From NCBI GenBank assembly GCA_900546745.1, contig URDT01000002.1:466-64465 (forward strand): a stretch of DNA of 64,000 bases. The letters are read 5' to 3'. Position numbers and translations under genes: made by a program. Below, piece after piece: positions 45,646 through 64,000 of this stretch. How positions within the stretch are numbered: the first letter of the stretch is position 1; each line of letters opens with the position of its first letter. The DNA comes from an uncultured Mycoplasmatota bacterium. Its GTDB lineage: Bacteria; Bacillota_I; Bacilli_A; RF39; UBA660. The notes beneath the pieces are model-generated. The model saw only the letters and a program-made list of their open reading frames with translations. It had not been told where the DNA came from and did not search any database.

Positions 45646-45662
45646 TGATATCACCTGTAGTC

Positions 45663-46004: not shown

Positions 46005-46754
46005 TTAATTATTATTATGTTTTTTTACTTTACATATAATAATTATTAATATAATAGAAATTGCAACTATAACATATATACATTTGTTATATTCTTTTTT
46101 TGAATCTTCCAATAATTCAGAGGGTTCTTTTTTATTATCTATCTTATCATTAGTTTGCTTATTATCTGAATTTTCTTTATCAGTTTTAACTTTATCTTCA
46201 TTATTAGGTTTATCTATTTTATTACTAGTATTGTCATTTTCGCCATCATTATCTATTTTTCCATCAGTTTTATTATTTTTGCTATCATTATTACCTACGA
46301 TAGTATTACTAATATTAATTATAGTTGAGTTATCATTTAAGTTTATTTTTTTATCACTTGATGTGGCTGCAGTTATTTGTTTTATTTTAATCTCTGTACT
46401 TCCTTTAATATTATTTTTGATTTTAAATTTAAATGTCACTATATCAGATGGTGTTATTACAGAATCAGATTTTATTAATATTGTGAATTTACCGTTATTT
46501 TCATTATATAAGGGTTCTTTTAATTTATTATTTGCCCTTTTTACTTCTACAAATTCTAATTTAGATGTATCATATTCTATTTTCCCTGTTAAAGCATCAA
46601 TACCTTCATTTGCTTTTTTTACATTCAAAGTAACTATTACATTTTTGTCATTTACACTTGAATTTAATGTTGTATCTATATTACTTAATGCTTTTACATT
46701 TATTGAATAAAATATTAACCCCACAATAATACTTATTAATATATTTTTGCACAT
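46005..46754 (-). CDS. cohesin-like domain protein with Asp/Asn/Lys-rich linker and C-terminal TM anchor
   Basis: Signal peptide, a ~130-aa beta-sandwich with LTGKIEYDTSKLEFVEV and TFKFKIKNN..GSTEIKI cohesin-like strands, a low-complexity linker, and a terminal TM helix. Confidence 0.55.
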   Translation of the reverse strand: MCKNILISIIVGLIFYSINVKALSNIDTTLNSSVNDKNVIVTLNVKKANEGIDALTGKIEYDTSKLEFVEVKRANNKLKEPLYNENNGKFTILIKSDSVITPSDIVTFKFKIKNNIKGSTEIKIKQITAATSSDKKINLNDNSTIINISNTIVGNNDSKNNKTDGKIDNDGENDNTSNKIDKPNNEDKVKTDKENSDNKQTNDKIDNKKEPSELLEDSKKEYNKCIYVIVAISIILIIIICKVKKHNNN

Positions 46755-46781
46755 ATTTTTCCTTTCTTAAGTTAAGATAAC

Positions 46782-49052: not shown

Positions 49053-49096
49053 CCATGTTTTTGGAGTTTTTGTTTCATCATCATTTAAGCCATATT

Positions 49097-50407
49097 TTAT
49101 ATTATATTTTCTAATAAGTATTTTTCATTAAATTGTTTTTCGTTTTCTTTAGAATATAATCTATCTTGATTATAGTTTGGATGAATATAATTCATATAAT
49201 TATAAGGATTTAAACGTTTATTTAAGTCTGCATACTTATATTCTGCATATTCTCTCAACCAATTTAATTCATCATTTGCAATAGAATTATTCATTATAAA
49301 TCTTAATAATTCCATTTCATAATTTTTAAAATCTTCTTTATATAAAATTAAATTATTATCATAAAGATTTTTTACAAGATCAAATCTTTTGTTTATATCA
49401 TAGCTTGCCATAGGAGAATTAAATGTTAGTGGTGTTGCTGGGAGATCAGAACTATAAGCAAATGCTAAAGCTATTAACATTTTTTTATAAATTAATCCAT
49501 CTTTATCATCGCCAATGATTTTTTTATTATTTGTATATAGATTATTTAAGGCAATTAAAAATTTTTCAGAATTATTGATATTTCCAGATTCTATAAACAA
49601 TTGTAAATTTTGCATATCATTTAGTAGCCAAGTTAAGGTTTCTTTCATTGTTTTAGTTGAATCATCTTTCACTGCAGTTTGTATGTTCCAATAACCTAAT
49701 CGATTAACTAACTCTCTTTTGAAAACTAACTCAAGATTATCTTTATAATTTTCTTCTACACTATTTTTATTTAAAATATTATCATAATATGAAAGCGGTT
49801 CTATTTCATTAAATAGTTCTGTTTTAATATTGTAATTTTCTTCGACTAATCTAGCATCTGCATAAACAGCATGGTCTACAGCATTTGAGCCGTTTTGATC
49901 AGCATATAGTCTTAAATATTTATAGTCTTTGATATTTAAATCTATCTCAAGTGCATTACTTTGAGATGTCACAGGATCAGATTTATATATTTCTTTCCAA
50001 TCTTTCCCATCATTAGATACTGATATTTTGAACCAAACATCACCAAGGCCATTTTTTGAACTATCAACACCAAGTTTTGCAACAAATCTTGTATATTTGT
50101 TTGAATATGTTGATATATCGTATGTAAGTTGACTAGTTGCGTGAACTCCCATTCCTTTATTAAAAAATACCTTTTCTCCATCAACTAATAAACTTATTTT
50201 ATTTCCTTCGATGTTCTTGTCTTTTTTTATTTCTCCCCAACCTACATAAGACCACTTATTTTCAGTTATATAGTCCATATCAGAAATATAATAATAATTT
50301 TTTGTTGGAACATCTATTGCATAAGATTTTATTGGTAACATTAATTGAACTAATAATAAAAGCATTAGTGCAATTGACATAATTTTAAATTTATCTGTTT
50401 TTTTCAT
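49097..50407 (-). CDS. secreted NPCBM-domain protein; likely the 5' part of the same split gene
   Basis: Signal peptide and an NPCBM-like module (YISDMDY...GWGEIKKDKN...GMGVHATSQLTYDI...VDHAVYADARL). The downstream ORF frame stays open across this stop. Confidence 0.65.
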   Translation of the reverse strand: MKKTDKFKIMSIALMLLLLVQLMLPIKSYAIDVPTKNYYYISDMDYITENKWSYVGWGEIKKDKNIEGNKISLLVDGEKVFFNKGMGVHATSQLTYDISTYSNKYTRFVAKLGVDSSKNGLGDVWFKISVSNDGKDWKEIYKSDPVTSQSNALEIDLNIKDYKYLRLYADQNGSNAVDHAVYADARLVEENYNIKTELFNEIEPLSYYDNILNKNSVEENYKDNLELVFKRELVNRLGYWNIQTAVKDDSTKTMKETLTWLLNDMQNLQLFIESGNINNSEKFLIALNNLYTNNKKIIGDDKDGLIYKKMLIALAFAYSSDLPATPLTFNSPMASYDINKRFDLVKNLYDNNLILYKEDFKNYEMELLRFIMNNSIANDELNWLREYAEYKYADLNKRLNPYNYMNYIHPNYNQDRLYSKENEKQFNEKYLLENII

Positions 50408-50730
50408 ATTTACCTCACATTTTTTATTAAAAAAGATTAAAAATTATATGGGAAATTATATCCAAAAAATTAATATAGATAATTAATTGGAATACCACTA
50501 ATTGTCTTTTTAATTTTTGATTTTAAAACATTTTTATTATGTCTTACAAGAATTTTTTCTAGTGGAACAATTTTATCATTTTTTTTATATTTTTTCAACA
50601 CTTTTTGTAAAAAATTTCTTTATAAAAATTTCAAAAAAATATAAAATTCAGGAAAATTCTTTTTTTTAATTTGAGTACCTAAATGAGGGTATAAAATTAC
50701 TTAATAGTTATAAAAGCATTTAATATAAAC

Positions 50731-50759
50731 AAAAATGAGAGCTTTCGCTCTCTTCAGGG
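50731..50759 (+). repeat. island-flanking direct repeat DR1, left copy (terminator-like hairpin)
   Basis: AAAAATGAGAGC-tttc-GCTCTCTTCAGGG. Both 12- and 13-nt arms are identical to the right copy; the loop differs. Confidence 0.75.
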
Positions 50760-50865
50760 TGAAAAAGAATACCCTATTTTTTTGTCATATTTTTCATTAT
50801 TATTGATTTATCACTTGCTATATTTCTCGTAAATAGCCATATTTTACCTATTTTGCTCTATGTAG

Positions 50866-50888
50866 TTGTTCCCCATTTGTTCCCAAGA
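50866..50888 (+). repeat. island-flanking direct repeat DR2, left copy (tandem TTGTTCCC motifs)
   Basis: TTGTTCCCcatTTGTTCCCAAGA matches 62361-62383 at 20/23 positions. Confidence 0.75.
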
Positions 50889-50915
50889 AAAAATAGAACT
50901 CATTTTTAAGTTCTA
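50889..50915 (-). terminator. terminator of the RM operon
   Basis: Minus strand AGAACTTAAAAATGAGTTCT hairpin followed by ATTTTTT. Confidence 0.75.
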
Positions 50916-50926
50916 CTTTATCTACA

Positions 50927-53467
50927 TCATGAATCCCTTCTATTCGCCAAAAATTCCAATAATCTTAATGCCTCATTTAATTTTAATTCATAATCACTGC
51001 CAAATAAATATTTTGCCCAGATAATATCTATATTTCTTATTTTAGGATTTTTTAAATCTAAAAACTCTATATTTGATTTTTCATTATTAATTTCTTCTAT
51101 CATGTTAGAATTAATTTTATTTATTTTTGGAACAAAAGTTTTTTTAATATCATTTACTTCCATTTTTCTCATTCCTTCTTGATCTTTTGAAGAAACTTCA
51201 CATAATAATTGATAAAAAATTGTGGTCATCCAACTTGATAATACCAAAGCTGAATTGTAGTCTTGCATAGAGCACACTACAAAGTTTGTTGAAACAAAAG
51301 ATGTTTCATTTGTTAAATATACTTTTCCAGATTTTCTAATTGCACGAGGAATTAAAACAGAATTTGCAGATACTGCATTTCTACTTTCACTATTAAGAAT
51401 AGCTATTAATTCTTCATAACTTTTTTGGGTTCTTTGTTGTCTTCCTTCCCTAGCTGGCAAAGATAAATATAAATTTACTATTTCAGAAGTTATTTGTGGT
51501 TCGTTATTTGAAATATTATAAAACTTTGAATCACCATTAGTTATTTCATAATTATCCATAAAAGCATTTCTAATACCTATAGATGTATTTACCCCAAGAT
51601 TTGAAACTGAGCTCCAAAAGTCATCTCTTGAGTCAATAAACAACAAATCACTTCCTCCTGAATTTCCAGCTTGACCTCTTCTAAAAATTGTATTTGATTC
51701 TTCAAACATCTCAAGTTTATCAGAAGTTTCTATGTTCTCTTTAACATATTCTATTGATTCTATCATTTCATTATTAAGTTGTCTCCATCCATCATCTATA
51801 GAATTCTCTAATTCATCTTTGCTAACCTTTTTACACATTATACCTGGCATATATGACTTAAACTCATTATCAAATTCATTTTTTAAAACATTTTCAAATA
51901 AATGTATATCAATGTCTGGTATATTATCATAACTTGATATTATTTCAATCTCATTATTATCTTGTTTTGAACTTCCCACTAAAACACATGTGTCCATCAT
52001 AACATCATTAAATATTCCCTGTCCTGGATACATGAATACCTTTTTTAGTCCAAAATTATTTAATAAATATTTTCGTATTGCCTTTGCTTCTTCACCTCTA
52101 GCCATTAAATGTGTTTTTGGAAAAACACAGGCAATAATTGTTCCTGTAGAAACCAAAGTATTTATTAACTCTAAAAACACACCTTCTAATGACATTTGTC
52201 CAACATTTAAAATTGCTCTACTACCTTTAATTTCCTCTATAGCTGAATATAATATATTTTTCCTGTCTACACAATTAATCCCCGCTACGAATGGTGGATT
52301 CATTAAAATAATATCTATAGTATTAAAAAATTTTCTTTCGAAATTTGCTATATTTCTATTATATATTTTAGGTGAGTTTTCTTTATTAATAATATTTGCA
52401 TATTTTAATCCCAATCTTAAAGAAAGTAATTCTAATAATTTTATATTTACATCATTTACTATTATTTGATTAGGCTTTAAAGAAAAAATATCAATTGCTG
52501 AGCTTATTAAGTTTCCACTTCCAGCAGCTGGATCACAAATTATATTATCATTCTTGTCAGTCATTGATTTTGCAAGTACTGACACCAATCTTCCTAATTC
52601 CAAGTCCGTAGGAACTTCCCCATAGTGTTCACGACCAGTTGATACAATTTGATGTAATATATCAGCTATTGTATCACCATTTATATTTGTCTTTCCAAGT
52701 TCATATAAATCTATTAAAACATTATTTGGTATTTGAACATCAGGGGCAAAATTATCTGAATCATAAGAAAATATATCTTTAAAATTAACTCTTGATGCTT
52801 CATTACATATTCTAGAGATATTATTGTTGAATACCCTAATATCATGCAAATCATTTCTTCTAATAAAATCAAATGAGCCTCTAATATATTCATAGAGCAT
52901 CAGTGCAAGTGAAGATTTCCATTCTTTATGTTTTTCCTTTACTGAAGTTGCAATATTTGCAAATTCATCAAATGTAATTAAATAATCATAACTATCATTA
53001 AAAAAACTTTGTAATTTTTCGATATAAAAATCTGTTAATAAATCTATAAATTCTTCTTCTGTTGTATCTTTAAACAAAGCAATCTTACATAGACCTGGCT
53101 TCAATATTTGTTGAAAAACTTTTTCTTTAGAAGGATCATATCTTAGTAAATATGCATATTCTAAATTTGTAATAATATAAAAAGGTTTTTCAGTAATTCC
53201 ACTATTCATTTGAACGTAAGACATTGCTTGATATTGATATCTAGCACTGTTAACATCAGCTGGTGTTCTTTTAACTTCAACTACACATGCATACTTCCCA
53301 GTTGACTTATTTTTAATTACAAAATCCATCTCTAGACTTCCCGTATATTGATGGTGTATTACTTCATATTGACTATCCATTTTTAAATTCTTAATTGCTC
53401 TATTAAGAGCTTTTTCACAAATTGGATGAAATCTTCTTACTTCAGAATCTGAATATGATATCCACAT
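50927..53467 (-). CDS. type IIG-like fused restriction endonuclease / N6-adenine DNA methyltransferase
   Basis: N-terminal PD-(D/E)xK (D48...E64-V-K66: EMDFVIKN..VVEVKR), motif I DPAAGSGNL, motif IV NPPF (52289-52300), and a long C-terminal specificity region. Confidence 0.7.
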   Translation of the reverse strand: MWISYSDSEVRRFHPICEKALNRAIKNLKMDSQYEVIHHQYTGSLEMDFVIKNKSTGKYACVVEVKRTPADVNSARYQYQAMSYVQMNSGITEKPFYIITNLEYAYLLRYDPSKEKVFQQILKPGLCKIALFKDTTEEEFIDLLTDFYIEKLQSFFNDSYDYLITFDEFANIATSVKEKHKEWKSSLALMLYEYIRGSFDFIRRNDLHDIRVFNNNISRICNEASRVNFKDIFSYDSDNFAPDVQIPNNVLIDLYELGKTNINGDTIADILHQIVSTGREHYGEVPTDLELGRLVSVLAKSMTDKNDNIICDPAAGSGNLISSAIDIFSLKPNQIIVNDVNIKLLELLSLRLGLKYANIINKENSPKIYNRNIANFERKFFNTIDIILMNPPFVAGINCVDRKNILYSAIEEIKGSRAILNVGQMSLEGVFLELINTLVSTGTIIACVFPKTHLMARGEEAKAIRKYLLNNFGLKKVFMYPGQGIFNDVMMDTCVLVGSSKQDNNEIEIISSYDNIPDIDIHLFENVLKNEFDNEFKSYMPGIMCKKVSKDELENSIDDGWRQLNNEMIESIEYVKENIETSDKLEMFEESNTIFRRGQAGNSGGSDLLFIDSRDDFWSSVSNLGVNTSIGIRNAFMDNYEITNGDSKFYNISNNEPQITSEIVNLYLSLPAREGRQQRTQKSYEELIAILNSESRNAVSANSVLIPRAIRKSGKVYLTNETSFVSTNFVVCSMQDYNSALVLSSWMTTIFYQLLCEVSSKDQEGMRKMEVNDIKKTFVPKINKINSNMIEEINNEKSNIEFLDLKNPKIRNIDIIWAKYLFGSDYELKLNEALRLLEFLANRRDS

Positions 53468-53468
53468 A

Positions 53469-54557
53469 TTAATCCTCCTCTACATATTTTTTTAATTGTT
53501 CAGCAATTATATTAGCCAATAATGGTGGAACAGCATTGCCAACAATTAAATTTTTTCCCTGTTTACTACTTGAAACTAATACATAATCTGGGAATGATTG
53601 TAACCTTAATGCCTCTCTTACTGTTATTAATCTATTTTCCTTATAATGTATATTGCATCCAACATTAGGTCTATTAAAATAAGTATTTATTGTGTAAGAT
53701 GGCAATTTAGGGTCTAATCTACCGTAACAAGTTGTATGTCCACCACTTTTTTGTAATCTTCTAATTCTTTGAGAATTTATATTTGATGGAATATCCATAT
53801 AATTTCCACCTGGTTTAACGCTATTTACTATTATTTTATCTAGCTCACTCATTTGTGGCATTATATGATCTGTAACTACTTTATTGTTATTTCTCACCAA
53901 TTTTTGATAATCATTTTTCGGTTTATATTTATATTCAATTTTTCCATCAATAATATTTGGTAAATCCTCTAATGCATCCTCCACACTAACATATTTTTTT
54001 AATCCATTAGTTCCATCTTCGTTATGAGTTGGTGATGGGAATTCGAAAGAATCATTCATCAATCCTACAATAATAACCCTTTTCCTTCTTTGTGGAACTC
54101 CATAATCAGCCGCATTTAATACCTTAGTATTAATTACATACCCAATTTTTCTAAATTCATTTTTTAGTAAATCTAAAATTTTTTCTCCTGCACTATTTTT
54201 AGCAGAAAGAATACCAGTAACGTTTTCAAACACAAATGCTTTAGGTTTGATTTTATTAATTATTTTTAAATATCTCCAAACCAATTGACCTCTAGCATCT
54301 TCAACATTCCTTTTACCTGCTAATGAAAAAGATTGGCAAGGCGGACCTCCAATTACAATATCACCATTTGGTATTTCATTTAAATCTATTTTGTTTATAT
54401 CACCTAATATAATATGATTTCCAATATTTTTTTTATAAGTTTCTACCGCATTTTTTTCATTATCTATAGCCCAAATGATATCATATCCAGCTTGCTTAAA
54501 TCCTAAATCTAAACCGCCACCACCTGAGAATAAACTGACAACTTTATTTTTAGACAT
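53469..54557 (-). CDS. dcm: DNA (cytosine-5)-methyltransferase
   Basis: Motifs I SLFSGGGGLDLGF, IV GGPPCQSFS, VI ENV, VIII QRRKRVIIVG, X GNAVPP. Confidence 0.92.
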   Translation of the reverse strand: MSKNKVVSLFSGGGGLDLGFKQAGYDIIWAIDNEKNAVETYKKNIGNHIILGDINKIDLNEIPNGDIVIGGPPCQSFSLAGKRNVEDARGQLVWRYLKIINKIKPKAFVFENVTGILSAKNSAGEKILDLLKNEFRKIGYVINTKVLNAADYGVPQRRKRVIIVGLMNDSFEFPSPTHNEDGTNGLKKYVSVEDALEDLPNIIDGKIEYKYKPKNDYQKLVRNNNKVVTDHIMPQMSELDKIIVNSVKPGGNYMDIPSNINSQRIRRLQKSGGHTTCYGRLDPKLPSYTINTYFNRPNVGCNIHYKENRLITVREALRLQSFPDYVLVSSSKQGKNLIVGNAVPPLLANIIAEQLKKYVEED

Positions 54558-55986
54558 CTTGGGCCTCCAATCTATTTGCTTTTATTAAATTATATATTTC
54601 TATTATTTTTTCAAATTCCATATTCATATATTTACTTAATATAAATGAAATTTTTTCAATGCCATTTTTTTCTTTTCCGTTCATTATATTTTCAGAAAGT
54701 TCAATTAATTTTTTCTTATCACTATTCGTAATTATTAATGGATTCACAATATTTAAATTATTAAAATCGTATTTTTGAATCTTTAATAACCCATTACCAT
54801 ATTTTTTACCTGTCTTTTCAAGTTGATAATAAATATAATAATTATTTAAAAGTGCAAAAGCTAACTTTTCATCAATATTACAATTTATTATATAAAAATT
54901 ATCTCTAACTATTTCAAAGTTTTTATTATATATAAATCTAATATCATTTCTAATAAAATAATTAAATATTATTCCAGTACAATTAAATGTTTTTATTTGA
55001 TACCATTTTTTATTATTTTTAATTTTATTATAAAGAGTTTTCGGTTTACCTTCTTTAAGTATTCTATTTTTAACATTTAATAAATATTTACTACATTTTT
55101 TTTCATTATCTACGATCAAAATATTATCATATTTAGAATTATTGGTCGTATATCCCAATATTTGTTTAGGTGTTGAAATAATTTTTTTTAAGTTTTCTTC
55201 ATTCTTAATAGAAGGATTTATGAACGCATCATTATATCCAGTTGTTATACCTCTTTTAATTTTAAAAACATTATCAAACTTAACACAGCTTCCAGATAAA
55301 TCCTGATATTCAATGTTATCCTTATAATAAATTCTGTTATTTTTGAAAACTACATTATATGCTTTATATTCATTTTTATCATTTAAGTTCTTTTTTAATC
55401 TCATTATTACAACATCAGTTAAAACATTATCTTCAAATACATCTCCATGAACATTAATAATTTCTTCAATTCTGCACGTGTTATTTATTTCCTTTATAAA
55501 TTTTTTACCAGAACTACTTTTTTGCCAACTTCCAGGAAATATAACAACTAATTGTCCGTTCTTTTTTAAGAGATTAATGCTTTTAACAATGAAATACATA
55601 TACATATTGGCATTTTTAGGTAAATTTGAAAATATAGTTTTCTTTTGCATTAATGCTTTATTAATTCCATATTCTTGCAAATCATTTATTTTTTCATGTC
55701 TAATATATGGGGGATTCATAATTATCAAATCAAATTTTCTGTTAAATCCTTTTTTTAAAAAATCATAGCAATATAAATTATCATATTTTGAAGATATTCT
55801 ATTATATAATTTAGGATCCAACTCACAACCGCATATATTTCTATAACCTTTTTTATATAGTTCTTCTATAAAAACACCTGCTCCAAAACATGGATCTAAT
55901 ATATAATCATCAGGTCTAATTTCACATAATGATATCATAAATTGTGCAACACTGTTCTTTGTAAAAACTTGTCCTAAATCAGTCAT
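54550..55986 (-). CDS. gamma-class N6-adenine DNA methyltransferase (TaqI/Eco57I-M-like)
   Basis: LGQVFTKNSVAQFM, motif I DPCFGAGVF, motif IV NPPYIRH, and a C-terminal target-recognition region. Confidence 0.85.
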   Translation of the reverse strand: MTDLGQVFTKNSVAQFMISLCEIRPDDYILDPCFGAGVFIEELYKKGYRNICGCELDPKLYNRISSKYDNLYCYDFLKKGFNRKFDLIIMNPPYIRHEKINDLQEYGINKALMQKKTIFSNLPKNANMYMYFIVKSINLLKKNGQLVVIFPGSWQKSSSGKKFIKEINNTCRIEEIINVHGDVFEDNVLTDVVIMRLKKNLNDKNEYKAYNVVFKNNRIYYKDNIEYQDLSGSCVKFDNVFKIKRGITTGYNDAFINPSIKNEENLKKIISTPKQILGYTTNNSKYDNILIVDNEKKCSKYLLNVKNRILKEGKPKTLYNKIKNNKKWYQIKTFNCTGIIFNYFIRNDIRFIYNKNFEIVRDNFYIINCNIDEKLAFALLNNYYIYYQLEKTGKKYGNGLLKIQKYDFNNLNIVNPLIITNSDKKKLIELSENIMNGKEKNGIEKISFILSKYMNMEFEKIIEIYNLIKANRLEAQDV

Positions 55987-56146
55987 ATGAAATTACACCT
56001 CCAATACTATAATCTCCCTTATATAATTATACCATAATCATTACAAAAATTCCTTTGAATTAAGTAAAAATACAAATAATAATATTAATATTGTAATTAT
56101 TTGACTTATTTTTTGTTTAGAGTGATTAATACATACGGAGGTGTTT

Positions 56147-56470
56147 ATGTTAAGGAAATGTACTGATGAAGATATAAGCGATGAAGAATGCGAAAAGGTT
56201 ATTGATCCCTTTTATGAAAACTATGATAGTTATTTGAAAGAATATGTTATTCCTGAAGTTATAGCATTTTATATTGCTAGTTCTTTCTATAGAAATGCTA
56301 TGTGGGAAGCAACTTTCAAACAACATTTTAATTCTGCTTTTGATACATTTAATTTGATGTGTAGAAATTATAAAAAAATGAAAGCTGAAGTTATTAAGCT
56401 ACTCAGATTAAAATATTCTTTAGAAATAATAAGTGAGGATCCCTTGAACTTCAAAATAATTGAGTATTAG
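56147..56470 (+). CDS. hypothetical protein (island cargo)
   Basis: 107-aa ORF with a GGAGGTG RBS; the GTG at 56141 lies within that RBS. No family recognised. Confidence 0.45.
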   Translation: MLRKCTDEDISDEECEKVIDPFYENYDSYLKEYVIPEVIAFYIASSFYRNAMWEATFKQHFNSAFDTFNLMCRNYKKMKAEVIKLLRLKYSLEIISEDPLNFKIIEY

Positions 56471-56522
56471 TGATTGCTAATGCTTTTTTATTGTAGTAGT
56501 AATAATACAATAAAAATATATA

Positions 56523-56566
56523 TTCTTTTCTTATTCTTATTCTTTCCTTATCCTTATTCTTATCCT
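56523..56566. repeat. pyrimidine-rich short tandem repeats (CTTAT/TCTTAT units)
   Basis: TTCTTTTCTTATTCTTATTCTTTCCTTATCCTTATTCTTATCC. Confidence 0.7.
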
Positions 56567-56585
56567 AGGAGGTCATTGATTATTA

Positions 56586-56637
56586 TTTGATTTCAATTTG
56601 ATTATATTTTGATTTTTGTTTGATTTGATTTTGATTC
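56586..56637. repeat. TTTGATT iterons, four phased at 11 bp plus two closer copies: candidate island replication origin
   Basis: TTGA cores at 56587, 56598, 56609, 56620 (11-bp spacing), then 56625 and 56631. They lie about 130 bp downstream of the rep gene stop. Confidence 0.6.
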
Positions 56638-56762
56638 TATTTTGTTTCATAAATGATTTGCTTTCCAAAAAACTCACGGAAAATTTTAATTTGTGTGTAT
56701 TTAGGTGGCAGGTAGGTCTTGATTTTTCTTCAAATAAAAAGGGCTATCCCCAGGGGTGATGC

Positions 56763-57527
56763 TTAAAATATATCATCAAAATAATGATTATTTGTTTCAT
56801 ATTCATCATTCCAACATTCATTTTTAAACCAATTAGAACCATATTTTATATGAATATCAGGAGTACCCTCGTTCTTTAAATAATCTATATAGTTATCCAA
56901 CCCTTGTTCTATAAAATCAAATGATTCTCCATTTTTTATTGCTTGATTATAATAATATAAAGCTTCCTTTTTCCCAACTTTTTTAGGATATTTATTCCAT
57001 AAAAATTCAAATTGATTTATTATTTTTGGATCAATGTCAGAAACATCAAAAGTGCTATATTCCTCTTCTTTTTGTTGTTCTGAATTAAACTCTTCTTCTT
57101 TTTCCTCTTCTTCATTATTCTTTTTTCTTCTTATCTCATCTAAGGCAACCAATGGTAAACCATCTGGCAACCCCTCTTCATTATATAAGTAATATGTTTT
57201 GTTATTTAGATTTACTCCTATCATATTTTTTTCATTTTTAAAATAAGTTTCATGATATCTGTCATTTCTTATTTGATTATTAGCAAGCCAATGTCTTATT
57301 GCTAGTGGTCCTGAATCAAATAAATAAACAAATCCTTTATCAATTAATGTTTTAATATCTTCTTCAGTACATTCTGCAAACTTTGTTATTTTTTTAGGAT
57401 TACCAATAAAGCCATCATCATATGCTCTTGTTCCTAATTCATAGTAAAGTAATCTTGCAGTAGCTGGTAGATCAGTAAATTGATCTGAATCAACTATATC
57501 AAGACTAAACATTCTTCTTCTAGCCAT
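56763..57527 (-). CDS. phage-type replication / replisome-organiser-like protein
   Basis: N-terminal MARRRMFSLDIVDSDQF..LP..ARLLYYEL....DDGF pattern. Acidic linker. C-terminal FEFLWNKYPKKVGKKEA... resembles the conserved phage C-terminus (Phg_2220_C-like). Assignment is from memory. Confidence 0.5.
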   Translation of the reverse strand: MARRRMFSLDIVDSDQFTDLPATARLLYYELGTRAYDDGFIGNPKKITKFAECTEEDIKTLIDKGFVYLFDSGPLAIRHWLANNQIRNDRYHETYFKNEKNMIGVNLNNKTYYLYNEEGLPDGLPLVALDEIRRKKNNEEEEKEEEFNSEQQKEEEYSTFDVSDIDPKIINQFEFLWNKYPKKVGKKEALYYYNQAIKNGESFDFIEQGLDNYIDYLKNEGTPDIHIKYGSNWFKNECWNDEYETNNHYFDDIF

Positions 57528-57771
57528 TTATTGTTTCACCATGCTTGTAATTAGGAATATTAAAATAATCAAGAACCATATCCATTGGAACTAATCCATT
57601 TTGTACTTTTGACTTTCCATCATAAAACTGATTACTTATCACATTTAATACTTCTCTTGCTTTATTTCTACCAATTGCACCAATATCCATTATGTCTTTA
57701 ATACTAGCCCATTGATATTCTGCTATTTTTTCTATTTCTTCTTTTGTTAGCATTTTTCTTCTTTTTCCCAT
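57520..57771 (-). CDS. small DNA-binding protein, DUF3173-like (possible excisionase/RDF)
   Basis: 83 aa; LTKEEIEKIA....A...I......G....NGLVPMDMVLDYFNI resembles DUF3173 proteins found next to Firmicute integrases. Confidence 0.4.
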   Translation of the reverse strand: MGKRRKMLTKEEIEKIAEYQWASIKDIMDIGAIGRNKAREVLNVISNQFYDGKSKVQNGLVPMDMVLDYFNIPNYKHGETING

Positions 57772-57813
57772 AATAAAAATCCTTTCTATTGTATTTAATA
57801 TAATATTTATCTC

Positions 57814-57835
57814 TTTAAAGCTTCTCAGACTCTAA
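57814..57835. repeat. 22-nt inverted repeat, left arm, flanking the repressor/cro module
   Basis: TTTAAAGCTTCTCAGACTCTAA is the reverse complement of 58903-58924 at 21/22 positions. Confidence 0.8.
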
Positions 57836-58047
57836 TTTAATACTAATGCATTATCTTTTGCTGAATATTCAAATTTGCTAAATTTAGCATCATATAGTTT
57901 TAACATCTTATTTAGCATTTCCATATTTGGAATTGTTTTTTTAGTTTCATAACTTCTTAATGTAACTGTACTTATTCCTAATGCTTCACTAGCTTTTTCT
58001 ATTGTATATCCAGCATTTACTCTTAATGCTTTAAGTGTTATTTTCAT
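57832..58047 (-). CDS. Cro/XRE-type HTH regulator
   Basis: MKITLKALRVNAGYTIEKASEALGISTVTLRSYE. ATG 58047 follows a GGAGGAGG RBS. It is divergent from the repressor gene. Confidence 0.75.
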   Translation of the reverse strand: MKITLKALRVNAGYTIEKASEALGISTVTLRSYETKKTIPNMEMLNKMLKLYDAKFSKFEYSAKDNALVLN

Positions 58048-58144
58048 TGCTTCACCTCCTCCTATCTTCTTCTCCATTATAGGATAAACATTTCTGTTTG
58101 TAAATATCTTTTTATCATTTTCATCATTTTTCTTTGCTTTTGCG

Positions 58145-58173
58145 TTGACAAATTTATCATTTTATTTTATTAT
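58145..58173 (+). promoter_or_regulatory. promoter of the CI-like repressor
   Basis: TTGACA (58145-58150), 17-nt spacer, TATTAT. TTATCATTTT is repeated twice in the divergent intergenic region. Confidence 0.55.
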
Positions 58174-58192
58174 GATATTGGAGGTAGGAAAT

Positions 58193-58855
58193 ATGAATAA
58201 AGTAGAAATGAGAAAAGTCTTAGCTAATAATCTTGTAGCATTATTAGACTATAAAAAGATATCAAGAAAGAATATTGCTGATGATCTTAAACTATCTTAT
58301 ACAAAGGTATGTGATTGGACAAGAGCTAGAACTTACCCAAGTGAAATTGAATTAGGAAAGTTAGCTAATTATTTGGAGACTACTGTTGAACAATTAACTG
58401 ATGGAGATTCATTAATTAATGACAATGGTTTTGAACCTGAACAATCATCAAAAAAAGCCAAGATATCTGTAATAGATATTGGCTCTGAAGAATGGATTAT
58501 TCACCCTGTTGATTATGAATGGGTTTCTACTAAATACTTAACACCAGAAACAGGATATTTGATGTTTGATGTTGTTGATGATTTAATGTCACCTAAATAT
58601 GATATTGGCGATACTGTATTAGTTGAATTTCTAAATAATAAATCAATTAAAGAAGATGGTGATTATTTAGTTAAATTAAAAGAATATGATTCTTGGTTAT
58701 TCATTCATATTTATGTAAAAAAAGATGGCTACTTAGTTGCACCACTTAATAACAATAATTCAAAATCAATCTTGCCTAGATTTTATACAAAGAAAGAATT
58801 TACAGAAAGTGCTACACAACCTCATAAGGCTATAAGGGTTTCTAAAAATATATAA
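58193..58855 (+). CDS. CI-like repressor: XRE HTH plus S24/LexA-like C-terminal domain
   Basis: HTH ISRKNIADDLKLSYTKVCDWTRARTYP. The C-terminal VVDDLMSPKYDIGDTVLV...DGDYLV resembles the S24 peptidase fold. ATG 58193 follows a GGAGGTAGG RBS. Confidence 0.7.
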   Translation: MNKVEMRKVLANNLVALLDYKKISRKNIADDLKLSYTKVCDWTRARTYPSEIELGKLANYLETTVEQLTDGDSLINDNGFEPEQSSKKAKISVIDIGSEEWIIHPVDYEWVSTKYLTPETGYLMFDVVDDLMSPKYDIGDTVLVEFLNNKSIKEDGDYLVKLKEYDSWLFIHIYVKKDGYLVAPLNNNNSKSILPRFYTKKEFTESATQPHKAIRVSKNI

Positions 58856-58902
58856 AAAAAAATCTCGTACTGGAATACGAGATCAATCAGAAATACCGTT
58901 TG

Positions 58903-58924
58903 TTAGAGTCTGAGAAACTTTAAA
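58903..58924. repeat. 22-nt inverted repeat, right arm
   Basis: TTAGAGTCTGAGAAACTTTAAA; see 57814-57835. Confidence 0.8.
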
Positions 58925-59037
58925 CAAATAAACATTATATAAATACAATGTAATGGGATTTCCTAAATTAATTATACCATTTTTATATAATATTACAAGT
59001 TTTTAACGGTATTTCCTTTGTAGAAAGGAATTTTTAT

Positions 59038-60159
59038 ATGGGTGTGTATAAAGATAATAGGCCTACGAAAGATGGTAAAATATGGTTTTATAAGACACAA
59101 TATGAAGATATTGATGGTACTCATAAAACTAAGAAATCAGGTAGATATGCAACTAAAAAAGAAGCAGAAGATGCTGAGTTTGAATTTAAATTAAAACTAA
59201 GGGAATACGAAAATACTAATAATGTTACTTTTGAAGAAATGATTAGGATGTTTATTGATTTTAGAAAAGATAAAGTTAAAGAGAATACATTATATGGTTA
59301 TAATAACAAATTACCTTATTTAAAATCATTATATAAAGTTAAACTTAAAGATTTTAACTACCCTACTTTTGAAAGATGGCATGATGAAATAAATAGTACA
59401 CATCTTGCTACAAGAACTAAAAATGACATATATAAGTTATTAAAAACTATTTTGAATTATGCTACTGCATGGCATGAATTTAACTTCGCTAAGGTATACC
59501 CTAAAATGTATAACTTTAATGATCCTAATGAATTCCCTAAAGAGCAATTATTTTTCACTTATGAAGAATTTAAACAATTTCTTTCGGTTGAAACTGATAT
59601 CAAATGGATTGGTATTTTTGAGATATTATATTACTGTGGATTAAGACGTGGAGAGCTTAGAGGATTACAATGGAAAGATATCAATTTTAAAGATAGAACT
59701 TTGAGTATAACCAAGCAAATTAATGATCGTTGTGGATCAGTTAAAAATTGGCGATTCTCGGTTCCAAAAACTAAAAGTAGTATAAAAATATTAAAGATGC
59801 CACAAGTCCTCACAAATGACCTTAAAACAATGAAAAATGAGGCAGAAAAGTCACCTGGATTTAATAATGATTTCTTCGTAGCTGGAGATATGTTTCCTGT
59901 ATGTAGCAATACACTTACTAATCATAAAAATGTTAATTGTAAATTAGCAGATGTCAAACAGATTCGATTGCATGATTTCAGACATTCTTGTGCTTCTCTT
60001 CTGGTTAATAAAGGAGCTAATGTTCAAGTTGTAGCAAAATACTTAGGTCATACAAAAGTCGAAGAAACTTTAAAAACTTATTCACACCTATTTACAAGTA
60101 CTTTAGATGAAGTTGTTGCAGTAATAGATAATTTAGATAACAATAAAACCGAGGATTAG
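59038..60159 (+). CDS. int: tyrosine site-specific integrase with N-terminal arm-type DNA-binding domain
   Basis: N-terminal GKIWFYKTQYEDIDG..K.KKSGRYATKKEAEDAE (AP2/Tn916-Int-like). Catalytic GLRRGEL, HDFRHS, LGHTKVEETLKTYSHL. Confidence 0.9.
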   Translation: MGVYKDNRPTKDGKIWFYKTQYEDIDGTHKTKKSGRYATKKEAEDAEFEFKLKLREYENTNNVTFEEMIRMFIDFRKDKVKENTLYGYNNKLPYLKSLYKVKLKDFNYPTFERWHDEINSTHLATRTKNDIYKLLKTILNYATAWHEFNFAKVYPKMYNFNDPNEFPKEQLFFTYEEFKQFLSVETDIKWIGIFEILYYCGLRRGELRGLQWKDINFKDRTLSITKQINDRCGSVKNWRFSVPKTKSSIKILKMPQVLTNDLKTMKNEAEKSPGFNNDFFVAGDMFPVCSNTLTNHKNVNCKLADVKQIRLHDFRHSCASLLVNKGANVQVVAKYLGHTKVEETLKTYSHLFTSTLDEVVAVIDNLDNNKTED

Positions 60160-60177
60160 TCTTATCGGTTATTTTTA
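60147..60177. terminator. bidirectional hairpin between convergent int and nuclease genes
   Basis: AACCGA / TCGGTT stem with a 12-nt loop, followed by ATTTTTAT. Confidence 0.5.
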
Positions 60178-61614
60178 TACCTTAGAAATTATTAAATTTG
60201 TTTTTTCTTGAAGCACATTTAAAAATTCTTTATGTGCATGTTCATAACACTTTAATGCTCTGATAATATCTCCATCTTTTATAGGTAAAATCAACCCATG
60301 TTCATCTAGGTAAGCATCTGAACAACTATTAATAAACTTATCATATTTATTAATTGTCCTACATGATAATAAGCCTATTTGTCCTCTTCTTGTGCTAAAT
60401 CTTCCAAGTAACTGATCCAATTCTGGATTTTGCGGATCATTCTTATAGTTTTTACATTCGATTATTATTTGTGGACTTGTCATCTTAATCTTGTCTGATA
60501 TTACTGCAAAATAACCAGTTTCAGCTATATTCGAAAAGATAATATCTATTCTTTTTCTTCCATCATGGATTTTTTCCTCTTTTCGTGGATTAGATAAATC
60601 TGGATATGTTAAGAACTCATATATTCCTATCATTAAGTTATGATAATCAGAAGCACTATCTGTTCCAACTGGAATGGATTTTAATTTTTCTATCATGTAA
60701 TTACATACATCTTCATAATTAACCTCAGTCAATAGTTCTCCGTTCATACAATTAGTATTCTTGTTTTTGCTCTTAAAATTACAAAAAATTTCTGGATGTT
60801 TTATTGTAAAATCCAAGATATATTTTTTATCCATCACTGGTTCTTTTTCAATAATAGACTTTTTTGTAACATATCTTTCTTTTGTTGTTTTTCTAATTTT
60901 CACCAAAGATGTTTCGTTTTCAATATTTTCCTTTTGTAGAAAATTTAAAATAAAATGTTGTCTATATTTTGATGGTGTATATGTTTCACAAAAGCTTATA
61001 ATTGATTTTGGTACTAATAATACAGGTGAATTGTTTACTACTAACCTATCAATGTATTTATTTTCCCATTTGTGGGTTTCCATATTCCAATAATATCCTG
61101 ATGGTACATTTTTAGTAAGAGGAATATTATTTAATTCGCATTGTTCAATTGTATAATCTAAGAGTTTTATTCTGATAATATTTGTTATTAAATCTGATAA
61201 TTTATCTCTGTCTATATTTTCAATAAATATTCTCAAGTCTTCAATATTTTCTAATACACCATATTCGATAGCCTTACTATTCTTTAATTGCGTAAAAATA
61301 TCCAAGGTACCACTTTGTCCAATACCTTTCCCTCTTGATTTATTCTTTGATAATCCAAGATGTGTTTCATTTACTTCGCCTATTCTGGTACAAATCATTC
61401 TTGCTTTATCATCCATATTGTTTTTTAACAGACCAATTAAATATGAGAAGAAATCTTGTAACAAGTCGTTACATGCCACTGTAAAATCAGAGTTACATTT
61501 TGCTATTAACGTTGAATCAACAAATAAAGGAATATCTTTTTCAGTATCAATATTTACAAAATCTAATTCTAATTGTGTTTTATTCAAATTATAAATATTA
61601 CTAATTGTTGCCAT
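60175..61614 (-). CDS. large protein with C-terminal Mrr-like PD-(D/E)xK nuclease domain; N-terminal ~340 aa unassigned
   Basis: D357 (KRIDIIF), E386-x-K388 (IIIECKNY), followed by ELDQLLGRFSTRRGQIGLLSCR, a pattern like the Mrr_cat restriction endonuclease fold. Confidence 0.6.
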   Translation of the reverse strand: MATISNIYNLNKTQLELDFVNIDTEKDIPLFVDSTLIAKCNSDFTVACNDLLQDFFSYLIGLLKNNMDDKARMICTRIGEVNETHLGLSKNKSRGKGIGQSGTLDIFTQLKNSKAIEYGVLENIEDLRIFIENIDRDKLSDLITNIIRIKLLDYTIEQCELNNIPLTKNVPSGYYWNMETHKWENKYIDRLVVNNSPVLLVPKSIISFCETYTPSKYRQHFILNFLQKENIENETSLVKIRKTTKERYVTKKSIIEKEPVMDKKYILDFTIKHPEIFCNFKSKNKNTNCMNGELLTEVNYEDVCNYMIEKLKSIPVGTDSASDYHNLMIGIYEFLTYPDLSNPRKEEKIHDGRKRIDIIFSNIAETGYFAVISDKIKMTSPQIIIECKNYKNDPQNPELDQLLGRFSTRRGQIGLLSCRTINKYDKFINSCSDAYLDEHGLILPIKDGDIIRALKCYEHAHKEFLNVLQEKTNLIISKV

Positions 61615-61615
61615 A

Positions 61616-62242
61616 TTACCTCACTTTTGACCACTGACAATCATCATCTTCTGGAATTTGATCTATACTAGCAGGTCTTATTATTTCATTAACTTTATAT
61701 AGTTCCATTAACATATCCTTAGTTTCTTCAATGGAAATATTAAAATTATTAGCAATTTCTTTAGTAGTAGTAGCATAATTCATACAAATATATTTATATA
61801 TTTCATCTAAATTAACTATACTTGAACTAATTAACTGTGATTCCCCTGTTTCTAAATAATTCAAAAAATTAAGTGTATTGATTATGCAATTGACAACATA
61901 TAAAGATTCCTCATTTGATAAAACATTATTATCATGTGCATAACTTTTATTATTTCTTATATCATTAAACTTTTCAAAAATGGATATAGATTGTTTTAAT
62001 GCTTGAATACTAAATTCACTAATTTGATTTTCACTTGAATAATACTTTATTAGCATGCCCATTAAACTATGTAAAGGTAGTCCTTCATTTTTATCATTTA
62101 AAATATCAATATTATGCAATAAACAATAACTTCTAATTTTTTTGATAGTAAAAGTATGTAATCGATCTAATGCAAGTACCGCTTCACCATCTGCTAAAGA
62201 TTTTCTTATGTCTTTCTTTAATTTTTCCAATTGTGCATCCAT
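61616..62242 (-). CDS. HEPN (Abi_C-like) domain protein with C-terminal winged-helix-like region
   Basis: Helical N-terminal domain with R96-x6-H103 (FNDIRNNKSYAHD; DNA 61934-61957). C-terminal YATTTKEIANNFNISIEETKDMLMELYKVNEII looks like a wHTH. Confidence 0.55.
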   Translation of the reverse strand: MDAQLEKLKKDIRKSLADGEAVLALDRLHTFTIKKIRSYCLLHNIDILNDKNEGLPLHSLMGMLIKYYSSENQISEFSIQALKQSISIFEKFNDIRNNKSYAHDNNVLSNEESLYVVNCIINTLNFLNYLETGESQLISSSIVNLDEIYKYICMNYATTTKEIANNFNISIEETKDMLMELYKVNEIIRPASIDQIPEDDDCQWSKVR

Positions 62243-62263
62243 GTAATATCCTCCTTATAAAAG

Positions 62264-62293
62264 AAAAAATTCTATACTTTAAATTGTATAGAA
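62264..62293 (-). terminator. terminator/attenuator-like hairpin immediately upstream of the HEPN gene RBS
   Basis: Minus strand TTCTATAC-aatttaaa-GTATAGAA followed by T6, ending about 8 nt upstream of the AAGGAGGA RBS. Confidence 0.6.
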
Positions 62294-62360
62294 CTCTATG
62301 ATTACATTATACTACTTTATCTCTCAAATGTCTGCAATAATCATGCAATTTTAACAAAAA

Positions 62361-62383
62361 TTGTTCCCGAGTTGTTCCCAAGA
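62361..62383 (+). repeat. island-flanking direct repeat DR2, right copy
   Basis: TTGTTCCCgagTTGTTCCCAAGA. Confidence 0.75.
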
Positions 62384-62432
62384 ATTATTTTCAATTTTAC
62401 ATATGCCCGCAAACCCTTATAAAATGGGCATA

Positions 62433-62467
62433 AAAAATGAGAGCACGGTTAAATGCTCTCTTCAGGG
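62433..62467 (-). terminator. recG rho-independent terminator = direct repeat DR1, right copy
   Basis: Minus strand CCCTGAAGAGAGCatttaaccgtGCTCTCATTTTT; first hairpin + T-run downstream of the recG stop. Confidence 0.7.
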
Positions 62468-62563
62468 GGTTTTGGTATACACTCTCAACTGTTATCGTAA
62501 GAGTGTATGCGTGAATACCATCACGCTATTATCATTATAAATGCTTTGTCGTAAAAAGTCAAA

Positions 62564-64000
62564 TTAATCTAAATCAATGGAATTTTCAATATATTGAATT
62601 AGTTCTGTAGAATCATTATTCTTTAAATAAATTTCACTGTCTTCTTTTGCTTTTAGTAAAATAGGATAATCATTTTTTAGATTAGCTAATTTAAATACCA
62701 TATCTCCACTCTGTCTTAAACCAAATAAATCTCCACTTCCACGCAATAAAAAATCTTCTTCACTAATCTTAAATCCATCATTTGTTTTTGTTAAAATATT
62801 TAGTCTTTCTGTTTCTCGATTACTAATTAAAATACAATAAGATTGAAGTTTATTTCTACCAACTCTACCCCTTAATTGATGTAAAGCGGAAAGTCCAAAA
62901 CGGAAACTGTCAAAAATAACCATCATTGTGGCATTGGCTACATCAATTCCTACTTCGATTACAGTTGTACTAATCAATATTTGAATTTTATTTTCCTTAA
63001 AATCATTCATAATAGCTTCTTTTTCTGAATTTATCATTTTACCATGCAAAACGCCAATTTTGTATAGTTTACCAAAAGCTTTATTCATATTTTCTTCCAA
63101 TTCAAATACATTTTTTAAATCACTCTTATCACTCTCTTCTATTAAAGGAGCAATAATGTAAGCTTGATGTCCTTTCTTTAGCTCTCCATAAATACTTGTT
63201 AATACATCTTTCATTTCACTTTCTTTTTTCAAAGTTGTTATAATTTCCTTTTTACCATTTGGTACAGTTTTAATAGAAGAAATATCCATATCCCCATAAA
63301 GTGTTAAAGCATATGTCCTTGGGATTGGAGTAGCACTCATATATAAAATATCTGGTGTAATACCCTTATTTTTTAAATTACTTCTTTGATTAACACCAAA
63401 TCGGTGTTGTTCATCTGTAATCACAAGTCCTAAATTTTTATATAGAACTTCTTCAGAAAATAAAGCATGTGTACCTACTATAAAATCAATTGTTCCATCT
63501 TGTAATTTTTGATATAATTCTCTTTTTTCTTTTGCTTTTAATTTACCCGTTAAAAGTCCAATTTTAATATCATAATCTTTCAATAAATTTTTTAAATTTT
63601 CATAATGTTGGATAGCTAAAATTTCAGTAGGAGCCATTAAAGCACTTTGATATCCACTTAAATAATTAATAAACATACTAATAATTGCTACAATTGTTTT
63701 ACCACTACCAACATCACCTTGTAATAAACGATTCATTCTTTTTTCATTTATTAGATCATGATATATATCATCAATAGCTTTCAGTTGATCACTAGTTAGA
63801 GAAAATGGTAAAGAATTAATAAATTTTTGTACACTATCATAATCTACATTTCTTTGTAATCCAATTTTATTTTTTTTATTATTTTTTAAATAATTCATTT
63901 TTAACATAAATAAAAATAACTCTTCATATTTTAATCGATTAATAGATTTTTTAAATTCTTTGATATTTCTTGGATCATGAACATTTTCTATAGCTTTCAT
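62564..64000 (-). CDS. recG: ATP-dependent DNA helicase RecG, C-terminal ~478 aa (N-terminus beyond the window)
   Basis: Helicase motifs GDVGSGKT, DEQHRFG, SATPIPRT, QLRGRVGR and the TRG-like C-terminus. The Met at 64000 is coincidental. Confidence 0.92.
   Translation of the reverse strand: MKAIENVHDPRNIKEFKKSINRLKYEELFLFMLKMNYLKNNKKNKIGLQRNVDYDSVQKFINSLPFSLTSDQLKAIDDIYHDLINEKRMNRLLQGDVGSGKTIVAIISMFINYLSGYQSALMAPTEILAIQHYENLKNLLKDYDIKIGLLTGKLKAKEKRELYQKLQDGTIDFIVGTHALFSEEVLYKNLGLVITDEQHRFGVNQRSNLKNKGITPDILYMSATPIPRTYALTLYGDMDISSIKTVPNGKKEIITTLKKESEMKDVLTSIYGELKKGHQAYIIAPLIEESDKSDLKNVFELEENMNKAFGKLYKIGVLHGKMINSEKEAIMNDFKENKIQILISTTVIEVGIDVANATMMVIFDSFRFGLSALHQLRGRVGRNKLQSYCILISNRETERLNILTKTNDGFKISEEDFLLRGSGDLFGLRQSGDMVFKLANLKNDYPILLKAKEDSEIYLKNNDSTELIQYIENSIDLD

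Follow-up and report, generated by a model that had tools for sequence, protein, structure and literature searches.

A phage-inducible chromosomal island (PICI) is recognized by SatelliteFinder through five components, namely an integrase, a regulator, a primase-replicase, capsid-morphogenesis genes and terS (PMC10085698). The StCI islands of Streptococcus thermophilus, described as "type C/D PICI", have restriction-modification (RM) or abortive-infection (Abi) genes as cargo; a protein of a virulent phage induces them, and competence alone is enough to move them (PMC13376191). The present analysis concerns an 11.7-kb island at positions 50731-62469 of a 64-kb stretch of bacterial DNA (the window), close to the recG gene. 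On balance, the evidence favors a compact phage-derived integrative island that was inserted by its own integrase at the 3' end of a small RNA (sRNA) gene and that has a satellite-like inducible life cycle. The island belongs to a large, previously undescribed family in uncultured gut bacteria.

With the PICI and StCI islands it shares a size within 7-20 kb, direct repeats as attachment (att) sites, an integrase, a divergent repressor/cro switch, a replication module and the absence of structural and lysis genes, as well as accessory slots beside int and at the far end that hold RM or Abi defence genes. The differences are that a DnaD-like replisome organizer with iterons takes the place of the primase-replicase, that terS, capsid-morphogenesis and other packaging genes are absent, that int is internal, 2 kb from attR, and that attB is an sRNA terminator. 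The island thus has two of the five SatelliteFinder components (integrase and regulator) and an analogue of a third (the DnaD-like rep with its iterons). An earlier note on this DNA had called it PICI-like. The layout does fit, with an integrase and att repeats bounding an element of 7-20 kb, a divergent cI/cro module, and neither tail, holin nor structural genes, whereas strict membership fails, the primase-replicase module and the terS and/or capsid-morphogenesis genes being absent. The SatelliteFinder / Penades-Christie definition also includes a master repressor that escapes cleavage in the SOS response, and helper-phage induction with high-frequency transfer in phage particles. By analogy, the StCI islands are the nearest described relatives in logic.

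The integration system resembles the lambda-type Int/att system in its tyrosine recombinase with an N-terminal arm-binding domain, in the short core common to attL and attR, and in the direct-repeat arm sites, unrelated to the core, in both arms. Like elements that target tRNA or transfer-messenger RNA (tmRNA) genes, the island restores the 3' end of its target RNA gene. In contrast to the lambda-type system, one tandem pair is seen per arm, IHF, Xis and Fis sites are undefined, the target is a non-tRNA sRNA, and one core serves at least four integrase lineages that differ in their arm motifs. The Tycheposons of Prochlorococcus (bioRxiv 10.1101/2020.12.28.424599) are likewise tyrosine-recombinase islands with replication genes and adaptive cargo that, in small genomes, stack in tandem at a few attachment sites in RNA genes; however, their hosts and proteins are unrelated, they target tRNA genes with primase/helicase-type replication, and the cargo of the present island is almost entirely anti-phage. 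Integrative and mobilizable elements (IMEs; PMC5704250) are also small and site-specific, with an integrase, and are often arrayed in tandem with relatives that use the same att site, whereas the island has no relaxase or recognisable mobilisation module and its backbone is a phage-type switch with a replication module. The head, tail, packaging and lysis genes of a prophage are absent from the island and from its six complete relatives.

Ends of the island and the target sRNA gene

The features at the two ends of the island are the following.

50664-50730 (+): decayed right end (arm repeats and spacer) of a different island type, abutting attL; from alignment
50731-50761 (+): attL, copy of direct repeat 1 (DR1) with loop TTTC; from the exact DR1 match and related junctions
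50760-50926 (+): left (P') arm, with the tandem TTGTTCCC-CAT-TTGTTCCC at 50866-50888, then a hairpin terminator
62243-62432 (+): right (P) arm, with the tandem TTGTTCCC-GAG-TTGTTCCC at 62361-62383
62433-62469 (+): attR, DR1 copy with the element-borne loop ACGGTTAAAT; from the homology end-point and a terminator scan
62433-62562 (-): host sRNA gene, predicted, providing attB; from promoter match, fold and conservation
62564-64000 (-): recG

DR1 (AAAAATGAGAGC-loop-GCTCTCTTCAGGG) has two exact matches in the window, at 50731-50759 and 62433-62467, where none is expected (100 shuffles). The copies lie 11.7 kb apart in a region of about 26% GC; their halves of 12 and 13 nt are identical between both junctions, and the loops are TTTC in the left copy and ACGGTTAAAT in the right one. 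Direct repeat 2 (DR2, TTGTTCCCnnnTTGTTCCCAAGA), also not expected by chance, is found at 50866-50888 and 62361-62383, and all four occurrences of the TTGTTCCC octamer in the 64 kb fall within it. The nested order in which the earlier note had placed the two repeats is borne out, and the repeats are not a product of chance.

The extent of the island follows from related loci (numbered with an L). A metagenome scan with the DR2 pattern gave 66 stretches, 16 of which are left ends. All 16 have AAAAAGAATACCC...GCTCTATGTAG / TTGTTCCCCATTTGTTCCCAAGA in common, beginning directly after CTTCAGGGGG, and to the left of CTTCAGGGGG these attL junctions show unrelated sequence (differing terminator stems, the right ends of other islands, or no hairpin). 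At the other end, an identical integrase is encoded on seven contigs in at least two contexts. L005 and L006 carry the part from int to the Abi_C gene in a different context, with 98-99.8% nucleotide identity to the window, and this homology stops exactly at 62469, where the right DR1 with its additional GG ends; beyond the equivalent position follows another island with TnpV, NUDIX, a helix-turn-helix (HTH) protein and an integrase paralogue. Because the 16 left ends and L005/L006 diverge only at these points, we take the element to extend from DR1 to DR1, with CTTCAGGGGG as the minimal core common to the family and DR2 inside. Since the islands bring their own left terminator half with a different loop, the crossover is placed in the right half of DR1. 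A site-specific integrative element bounded by DR1 is thus strongly supported, and the model of the earlier note in which DR1 is the attL/attR core agrees with the comparison with more than 190 related loci.

By its promoter, fold and conservation, attB is the 3' end of a predicted, unannotated sRNA gene, with DR1 as its intrinsic terminator. The promoter, just past the recG stop, has its -35 box TTGACT at 62562-62557 and its -10 box TATAAT at 62539-62534, with a spacer of 17 and 11 of 12 positions matching. The predicted transcript runs from about 62527 to 62433 (about 95 nt) and consists of hairpin 1, hairpin 2, the C-rich single strand UUCAACCAAAACCCCCUGAA and the terminator GAGAGC-GAAA-GCUCUC-U5, which is DR1. 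Its fold has a z-score of -4.6, all five predicted pairs of hairpin 2 show compensatory changes (36 species), and more than 55 species have kept the gene; in the window copy, 3 nt of a conserved UUCAACC motif are missing. recG (51-79% identical) adjoins the site in more than 45 loci, and in some species other genes lie between the sRNA and recG, or the neighbouring gene is divergent. The right DR1 had previously been described as the recG terminator; it is indeed a minus-strand terminator, but it belongs to a separate conserved sRNA with its own promoter. The loop ACGGTTAAAT is present in 40 of 121 DR1 sites.

An Rfam search of the window, five related loci and the attB region (E up to 10) gave no RNA family at the site. 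The tmRNA, tRNA and signal recognition particle RNA were accordingly rejected as targets, ARAGORN giving only a distant tRNA-Thr. A tRNA-Thr(CGT) gene at 27159-27232 (-) and a T-box leader at 13177-13365 (-; 101 bits) are ordinary host features, unrelated to the island.

A scan with the DR1 pattern, using one genome per species, gave at least 120 stretches. Among the matches listed, the carriers are mostly gut metagenome-assembled genomes (MAGs) named "Bacilli / Tenericutes / Mycoplasma sp. CAG", names that we take to be of RF39 type, and one carrier, Candidatus Pelethosoma, is placed under Mycoplasmatota by NCBI.

In approximately 15 islands of the window type the right end is another one, ...CTTATAAACACTGGCTTAAATCAATTCTAATTTTTCGTTGGATGTGGCAGGGGG, which has only CAGGGGG in common with DR1 and lacks the terminator copy (L140, L144, L149, L160, L170, L171, L173, L175, L176, L178, L179, L184, L194, L196 and L200). 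These ends are often followed by GAAGAGAGC or by other islands, and no tRNA genes were found beside them. They may represent another attB besides the first, or else an sRNA gene with a changed 3' end.

Integrase and arm-type sites

59038-60159 (+): int, tyrosine integrase with an N-terminal arm-binding domain; from Pfam and PHROG

The integrase matches Phage_integrase (3.3e-22), PHROG 1 (6.4e-61) and Arm-DNA-bind_4 (6e-06; 26.2 bits, with a cut-off of 22.3). It is of temperate Firmicute-phage type and stands far from known phages, at 33% identity.

Two copies of TTGTTCCC per arm are found at fixed distances in more than 25 relatives. In the window, the pair of the left arm is 107 nt inward of attL and that of the right arm 48 nt inward of attR. 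The left arm is kept in 16 metagenome contigs with unrelated left flanks, always with 107 nt between DR2 and the core, and a distant 5.3-kb relative (L047/L114) has the same arm layout. The right arm is 86-95% identical in nine of the ten representative genomes that carry it (76% in L020), and the tandem TTGTTCCC-nnn-TTGTTCCC, phased by 11 nt, stands at -72/-61 from DR1 in all ten window-type right arms of these genomes.

Other islands at the same attB have other tandems to the left of DR1, such as TTGTACCTAAAT-TGTACCTAAAAT, GGTACCTAAAT-GGTACCTAAT and GTGTACCTAAAA-GTGTACCTAAAAT, and TTCGTTCCCGAC-TTGTTCCGGAC in L114; in the left arms the matching tandem is located 107-130 nt inside the core. 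The motif changes together with the integrase: proteins of islands with TTGTTCCC are 95-100% identical to the window protein, and those of the other lineages, which carry TTGTACCTAAA, GGTACCTAA or GTGTACCTAAAA tandems, are 40-52%, 50-64% and 36-46% identical. The fixed spacing, this tracking of the integrase lineage and the Arm-DNA-bind_4 domain, which scores above its cut-off, support the suggestion of the earlier note that the tandem motifs behave as arm-type sites, putatively bound by the integrase.

The sequence at 50664-50730 aligns to a conserved "type 4" right end, TTTAAATTTGTGTACCTAAAAGTGTACCTAAAATTACTTAATAG..AAACCCTTTAATAYAAAC, that stands next to DR1 in about 14 species, and it has arm repeats of the GTGTACCTAAAA type, the second of which is mutated. 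This decayed end immediately left of attL points to a hotspot with tandem arrays, the island lying in a former array. The 108 evaluable DR1 sites comprise 37 with an island arm on one side and the sRNA on the other, 31 with an island arm and non-sRNA sequence, which we read as junctions inside tandem arrays, 21 with other sequence on both sides, and 19 without a recognisable arm beside the sRNA, most of them flanked by defence-gene remnants (such as Fic, Dam and a 195-aa membrane protein).

The DNA to the left of 50664-50730 may also be island-derived. Conserved host genes are 3.3 kb from DR1 in the related species L079 and 8 kb in the window, with no homology in between. In the window this interval is a strain-variable block (42795-50660) that encodes a 727-aa open reading frame (ORF), a 249-aa low-complexity membrane protein, an F5/8-type-C and dockerin protein and an NPCBM protein; given the unrelated 3.3 kb in L079, it may be older island cargo.

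A stable backbone between two exchangeable cargo slots

The backbone of approximately 4 kb has the order orf109, iteron origin, DnaD-like rep, orf83, cro, cI and int, and the family searches bear out the gene order read from the sequence in the earlier note. In addition to int, it consists of the following features.

56147-56470 (+): orf109, backbone gene conserved in six complete relatives
56521-56644 (no strand): putative replication origin, phased iterons downstream of rep; from Tandem Repeats Finder
56763-57527 (-): rep, DnaD-like replisome organizer (replication initiator); from PHROG
57520-57771 (-): orf83, its start overlapping the rep end, downstream of cro
57795-57835 (-): shared leader/operator, arm 1 of the 41-nt inverted repeat I1, upstream of orf83-rep
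57832-58077 (-): cro-like HTH regulator; from Pfam HTH_3, 3.1e-11
58193-58855 (+): cI-like repressor with an N-terminal HTH and a degenerate S24-like C-terminal domain; from PHROG 4
58903-58943 (+): second copy of the shared leader/operator, upstream of int

The cargo, called with Pfam and PADLOC, occupies two slots.

50927-53467 (-), slot 1: BpuSI-like type IIG R-M enzyme; from Pfam and PADLOC
53469-54557 (-), slot 1: C5 methyltransferase; DNA_methylase, 6.2e-77
54550-55986 (-), slot 1: Eco57I-like N6 methyltransferase; Eco57I, 7.5e-20
60175-61614 (-), slot 2: DUF8370/PDC-M36A protein, 479 aa; PADLOC PDC-M36A, 3.5e-44, and precomputed Pfam DUF8370
61616-62242 (-), slot 2: Abi_C (HEPN-type) protein; Pfam Abi_C, 7.5e-09

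The rep product matches PHROG 8489 (2.9e-44) and PHROG 5708 (5.6e-43) and is 28-47% identical to replication proteins of temperate Firmicute phages (tblastn). The phased iterons reported earlier were recovered by Tandem Repeats Finder as 6.3 copies of TTGATTATAAT with a period of 11 at 56576-56644 and 7.5 copies of TATTCT at 56521-56566. For orf109 there are 748 homologues, none of them annotated, and its AlphaFold2 model (pLDDT 50) is too poor for use. Sister islands at the site (L005, 5709-6379; L008; L014) have TnpV first and then a 103-aa homologue of orf109 with 38-43% identity, and because of this homologue we consider orf109 part of a gene family that spans island lineages.

The protein encoded by orf83 had been called DUF3173-like, and this assignment is not supported: there is no Pfam, PHROG or NCBIfam match, and all 129 homologues are unannotated. 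AlphaFold2 gives a four-helix model (pLDDT 80), for which a fold search against the PDB returned nothing significant, the best match being the FtsK-gamma winged helix (E 0.27). An identification of orf83 as DUF3173 or as Xis was rejected on these grounds.

The cro and cI genes are divergently arranged. The repressor matches PHROG 4 (7.9e-15), its Peptidase_S24 match is below cut-off (E 0.0026), and no S24 match was found against PDB sequences. The nucleophile motif GDSM reads DDLM in the window, DDSM in the L038 homologue, and DNTM or fully degenerate sequence in the other homologues, which suggests repeated loss of self-cleavage in this repressor family. Upstream of cI there are a TTGACA-17-TATGAT promoter, called strong, and repeated TTTATCATTTT boxes.

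The cro-cI switch is bracketed by the inverted repeat I1 (41 nt, 88% complementary). The sequence TTAGAGTCTGAGAA..TATAT.AAATACAAT precedes both orf83 and int; four of the six complete relatives have TTAGAGTCTGAGAA unchanged in both places, and the other two have it upstream of orf83 only. Its presence before both orf83-rep and int suggests a joint switch-on of excision and replication. The two I1 copies could be a shared promoter/operator or, conceivably, the ends of an invertible segment.

The six complete relatives, rebuilt from adjacent metagenome blocks, are 11.3-16.1 kb long. At the amino acid level, their orf83, cro, cI and int are 93-100% identical to those of the window, orf109 76-93% and rep 59-90%. 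None of the window's cargo is present in any of them, and both slots are wholly different. By sequence inspection, RM systems fill the left slot (type I together with a GmrSD-like gene, or else type II, type III or IIG), and the int-proximal slot holds unrelated one- or two-gene cargo (KAP NTPase, HEPN-like, PD-(D/E)xK-like or RelA/SpoT-like). The comparison thus shows a stable backbone while the two slots exchange defence systems. In the wider family the recurrent cargo includes AAA_21 with RloB, Fic, M78-Fic and AbiEi-like proteins, TnpV and methyltransferases.

In the window, the type IIG enzyme matches BpuSI_N (1.4e-66), N6_Mtase (4.8e-11) and BpuSI_TRD (3.2e-86), as well as the PADLOC model REase_MTase_IIG (1.1e-167). 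It has the BpuSI-type arrangement, namely a restriction-modification-specificity fusion (BpuSI_N nuclease, N6 methyltransferase, BpuSI_TRD) that has C5 and N6 methyltransferase genes next to it. PDC-M36A belongs to the PADLOC candidate system PDC-M36; the Abi_C protein beside it matches no PADLOC model, and a search for literature on PDC-M36 found none. With R-M and methyltransferase genes in slot 1 and DUF8370/PDC-M36A with Abi_C in slot 2, the cargo on both sides is defence-type, as the note had it.

Life cycle, competing explanations and significance

The comparison strongly supports insertion of the island by its integrase within the 3' end of the sRNA gene that lies downstream of recG, with a crossover in CTTCAGGGGG and with the TTGTTCCC pairs as arm-type sites putatively read by the N-terminal domain; the island's own copy of the other half of the terminator leaves the sRNA with a terminator after insertion. 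For the steps that follow, a life cycle is proposed. The cI protein would keep the island silent. As it is probably not self-cleaving, derepression would come from an outside trigger, e.g., a phage protein, and would turn on the orf83-rep operon and int through their common upstream sequence. Once excised, the island would form a circle that replicates from the iterons, and phage particles or some other route would spread it, while the cargo would protect the host. The predicted attP junction is ...GGGCATAAAAAATGAGAGCACGGTTAAATGCTCTCTTCAGGG[G/T]GAAAAAGAATACCC... and the predicted attB is ...TAATATAAACAAAAATGAGAGCTTTCGCTCTCTTCAGGGGGTTTTGGTATACAC....

A number of observations weigh against such a cycle. 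The core of attL in the window is CTTCAGGGTG instead of the CTTCAGGGGG of the relatives, a G-to-T change found identically in L001-L003; at 50758-50761, CAGGGTG replaces the CAGGGGG of 16 relatives and of the island's own attR. This single mismatch falls in the presumed overlap region and may reduce excision or strand exchange. In some relatives (E1/E2, i.e., L150+L147 and L141+L158; and L117), which are nearly identical islands, the match to the integrase is split into two pieces that overlap; this points to a frameshift in int, and some copies are probably immobilised. That cI is probably not self-cleaving is read from motif inspection (a weak S24-like domain, and DDLM in place of GDSM), and orf83 is a candidate excision or DNA-binding factor solely by position. 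The searches revealed neither a primase or helicase nor a terS, cos-type or capsid-redirecting function, which leaves no evident packaging route, and we know of no helper phage for these uncultured hosts. Finally, neither an attP junction, a circular contig nor a same-species empty site was found.

The searches behind the last point were as follows. A 30-nt species-specific junction had no metagenome match, and the DR2 matches include no circular or attP contig. The earlier note had proposed to define the empty site from related genomes that lack the island, and this did not succeed within the species, since the NPCBM neighbour protein was found only on island-carrying contigs. Candidates for empty sites in other species, such as L016 and L074, proved to be right ends of another island type and were discarded; most of the others have the defence-gene remnants mentioned above beside them, and only a few, e.g., L052 and L098, look naive.

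A phage-free integrative element is a rather unlikely alternative, yet one with arguments of its own. It would move by IME-like conjugative mobilisation or by natural transformation, and its phage-like genes would serve regulation and maintenance only. No packaging function was found: searches of the 11 island ORFs in Pfam, PHROGs and NCBIfam returned no terminase, capsid, portal, tail, lysis or relaxase match and left only orf83 and orf109 without an assignment, in agreement with the absence of terminase, capsid-remodelling and packaging genes pointed out in the earlier note. Sister islands at the same site carry TnpV, which is typical of mobilisable clostridial transposons, and competence alone suffices to move StCI islands (PMC13376191). 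However, general family searches found no relaxase or coupling protein, neither in the 11 ORFs nor among the clusters that recur across the family, and a cI/cro switch together with a replisome organizer and iterons is typical of the induction-replication logic of phages and satellites.

It is improbable that the island is a degraded prophage, that is, a lysogeny and replication module left after deletion of the structural genes and no longer autonomous. The int, cI, cro and rep genes resemble those of temperate Firmicute phages in type, its left neighbour is clearly a decayed island end, and its attL core is mutated, all of which would be in line with decay. However, at least seven complete copies of 11-16 kb exist in different hosts and contexts and with different cargo, with intact att arms and a compact backbone that is 93-100% identical at the amino acid level. 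Structural genes are absent from the six complete relatives and from the recurrent clusters of about 190 loci, and random decay would not repeat one end point. Nor was DR1, or any close relative of int, rep or cI, found among the 2.9 million contigs of IMG/VR.

The other model of the earlier note, with DR2 as the recombination core and DR1 merely a duplicated terminator, can practically be set aside: although a single hybrid DR2 joins both sides in L162, element sequence runs outward from DR2 to DR1 in 16 junctions at attL and in more than 25 at attR, with flanks varying only beyond CTTCAGGGGG, and the DR2 sequence differs between integrase lineages that use the same DR1 target. L162 is a 2.5-kb contig in which the hybrid DR2 (about position 86, spacer AAT), with no DR1, has the sequence upstream of the right DR2 joined to that downstream of the left one. 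It is most simply explained as a deletion between two DR2 copies about 230 nt apart at a tandem junction, and not as an attP site, with a DR2-mediated circle as the less simple reading.

Returning to the phage-derived, satellite-like island, it represents a new family within a known kind of element, in which the sRNA target, the lineage-specific arm motifs on one core and the two cargo-exchange slots stand out. Its hosts presumably form an abundant, uncultured gut lineage with small genomes (RF39-type, from the MAG names). The mobile elements and phage defences of this lineage are to our knowledge essentially undescribed, and a literature search found no paper on such elements in RF39. The family offers a clean comparative case for arm-type sites, with one core and several integrase lineages that each have their own motif, and it shows defence genes shuffled in two fixed slots around a stable 4-kb backbone. 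The new sRNA hotspot has a 25-nt pattern with which metagenomes can be searched for islands and defence systems.

We tentatively extend these findings to a broader view, in which the sRNA terminator is the docking site of an island superfamily, with at least four integrase lineages on one core and arm "barcodes" of their own (TTGTTCCC, TTGTACCTAAA, GGTACCTAA and GTGTACCTAAAA), the locus is the main anti-phage arsenal, and the sRNA is a new regulatory RNA. If this is true, several islands in tandem at one attB could excise independently without cross-reaction, and in the docking site with its two swap-in slots these gut bacteria with reduced genomes would have their main exchangeable stock of anti-phage genes. 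The conserved C-rich sRNA, which has no Rfam entry, would be a novel regulatory RNA, and each insertion would rewrite its 3' end. If phages are shown to induce the island, satellite biology would extend to this clade in a minimal design that has no packaging gene.

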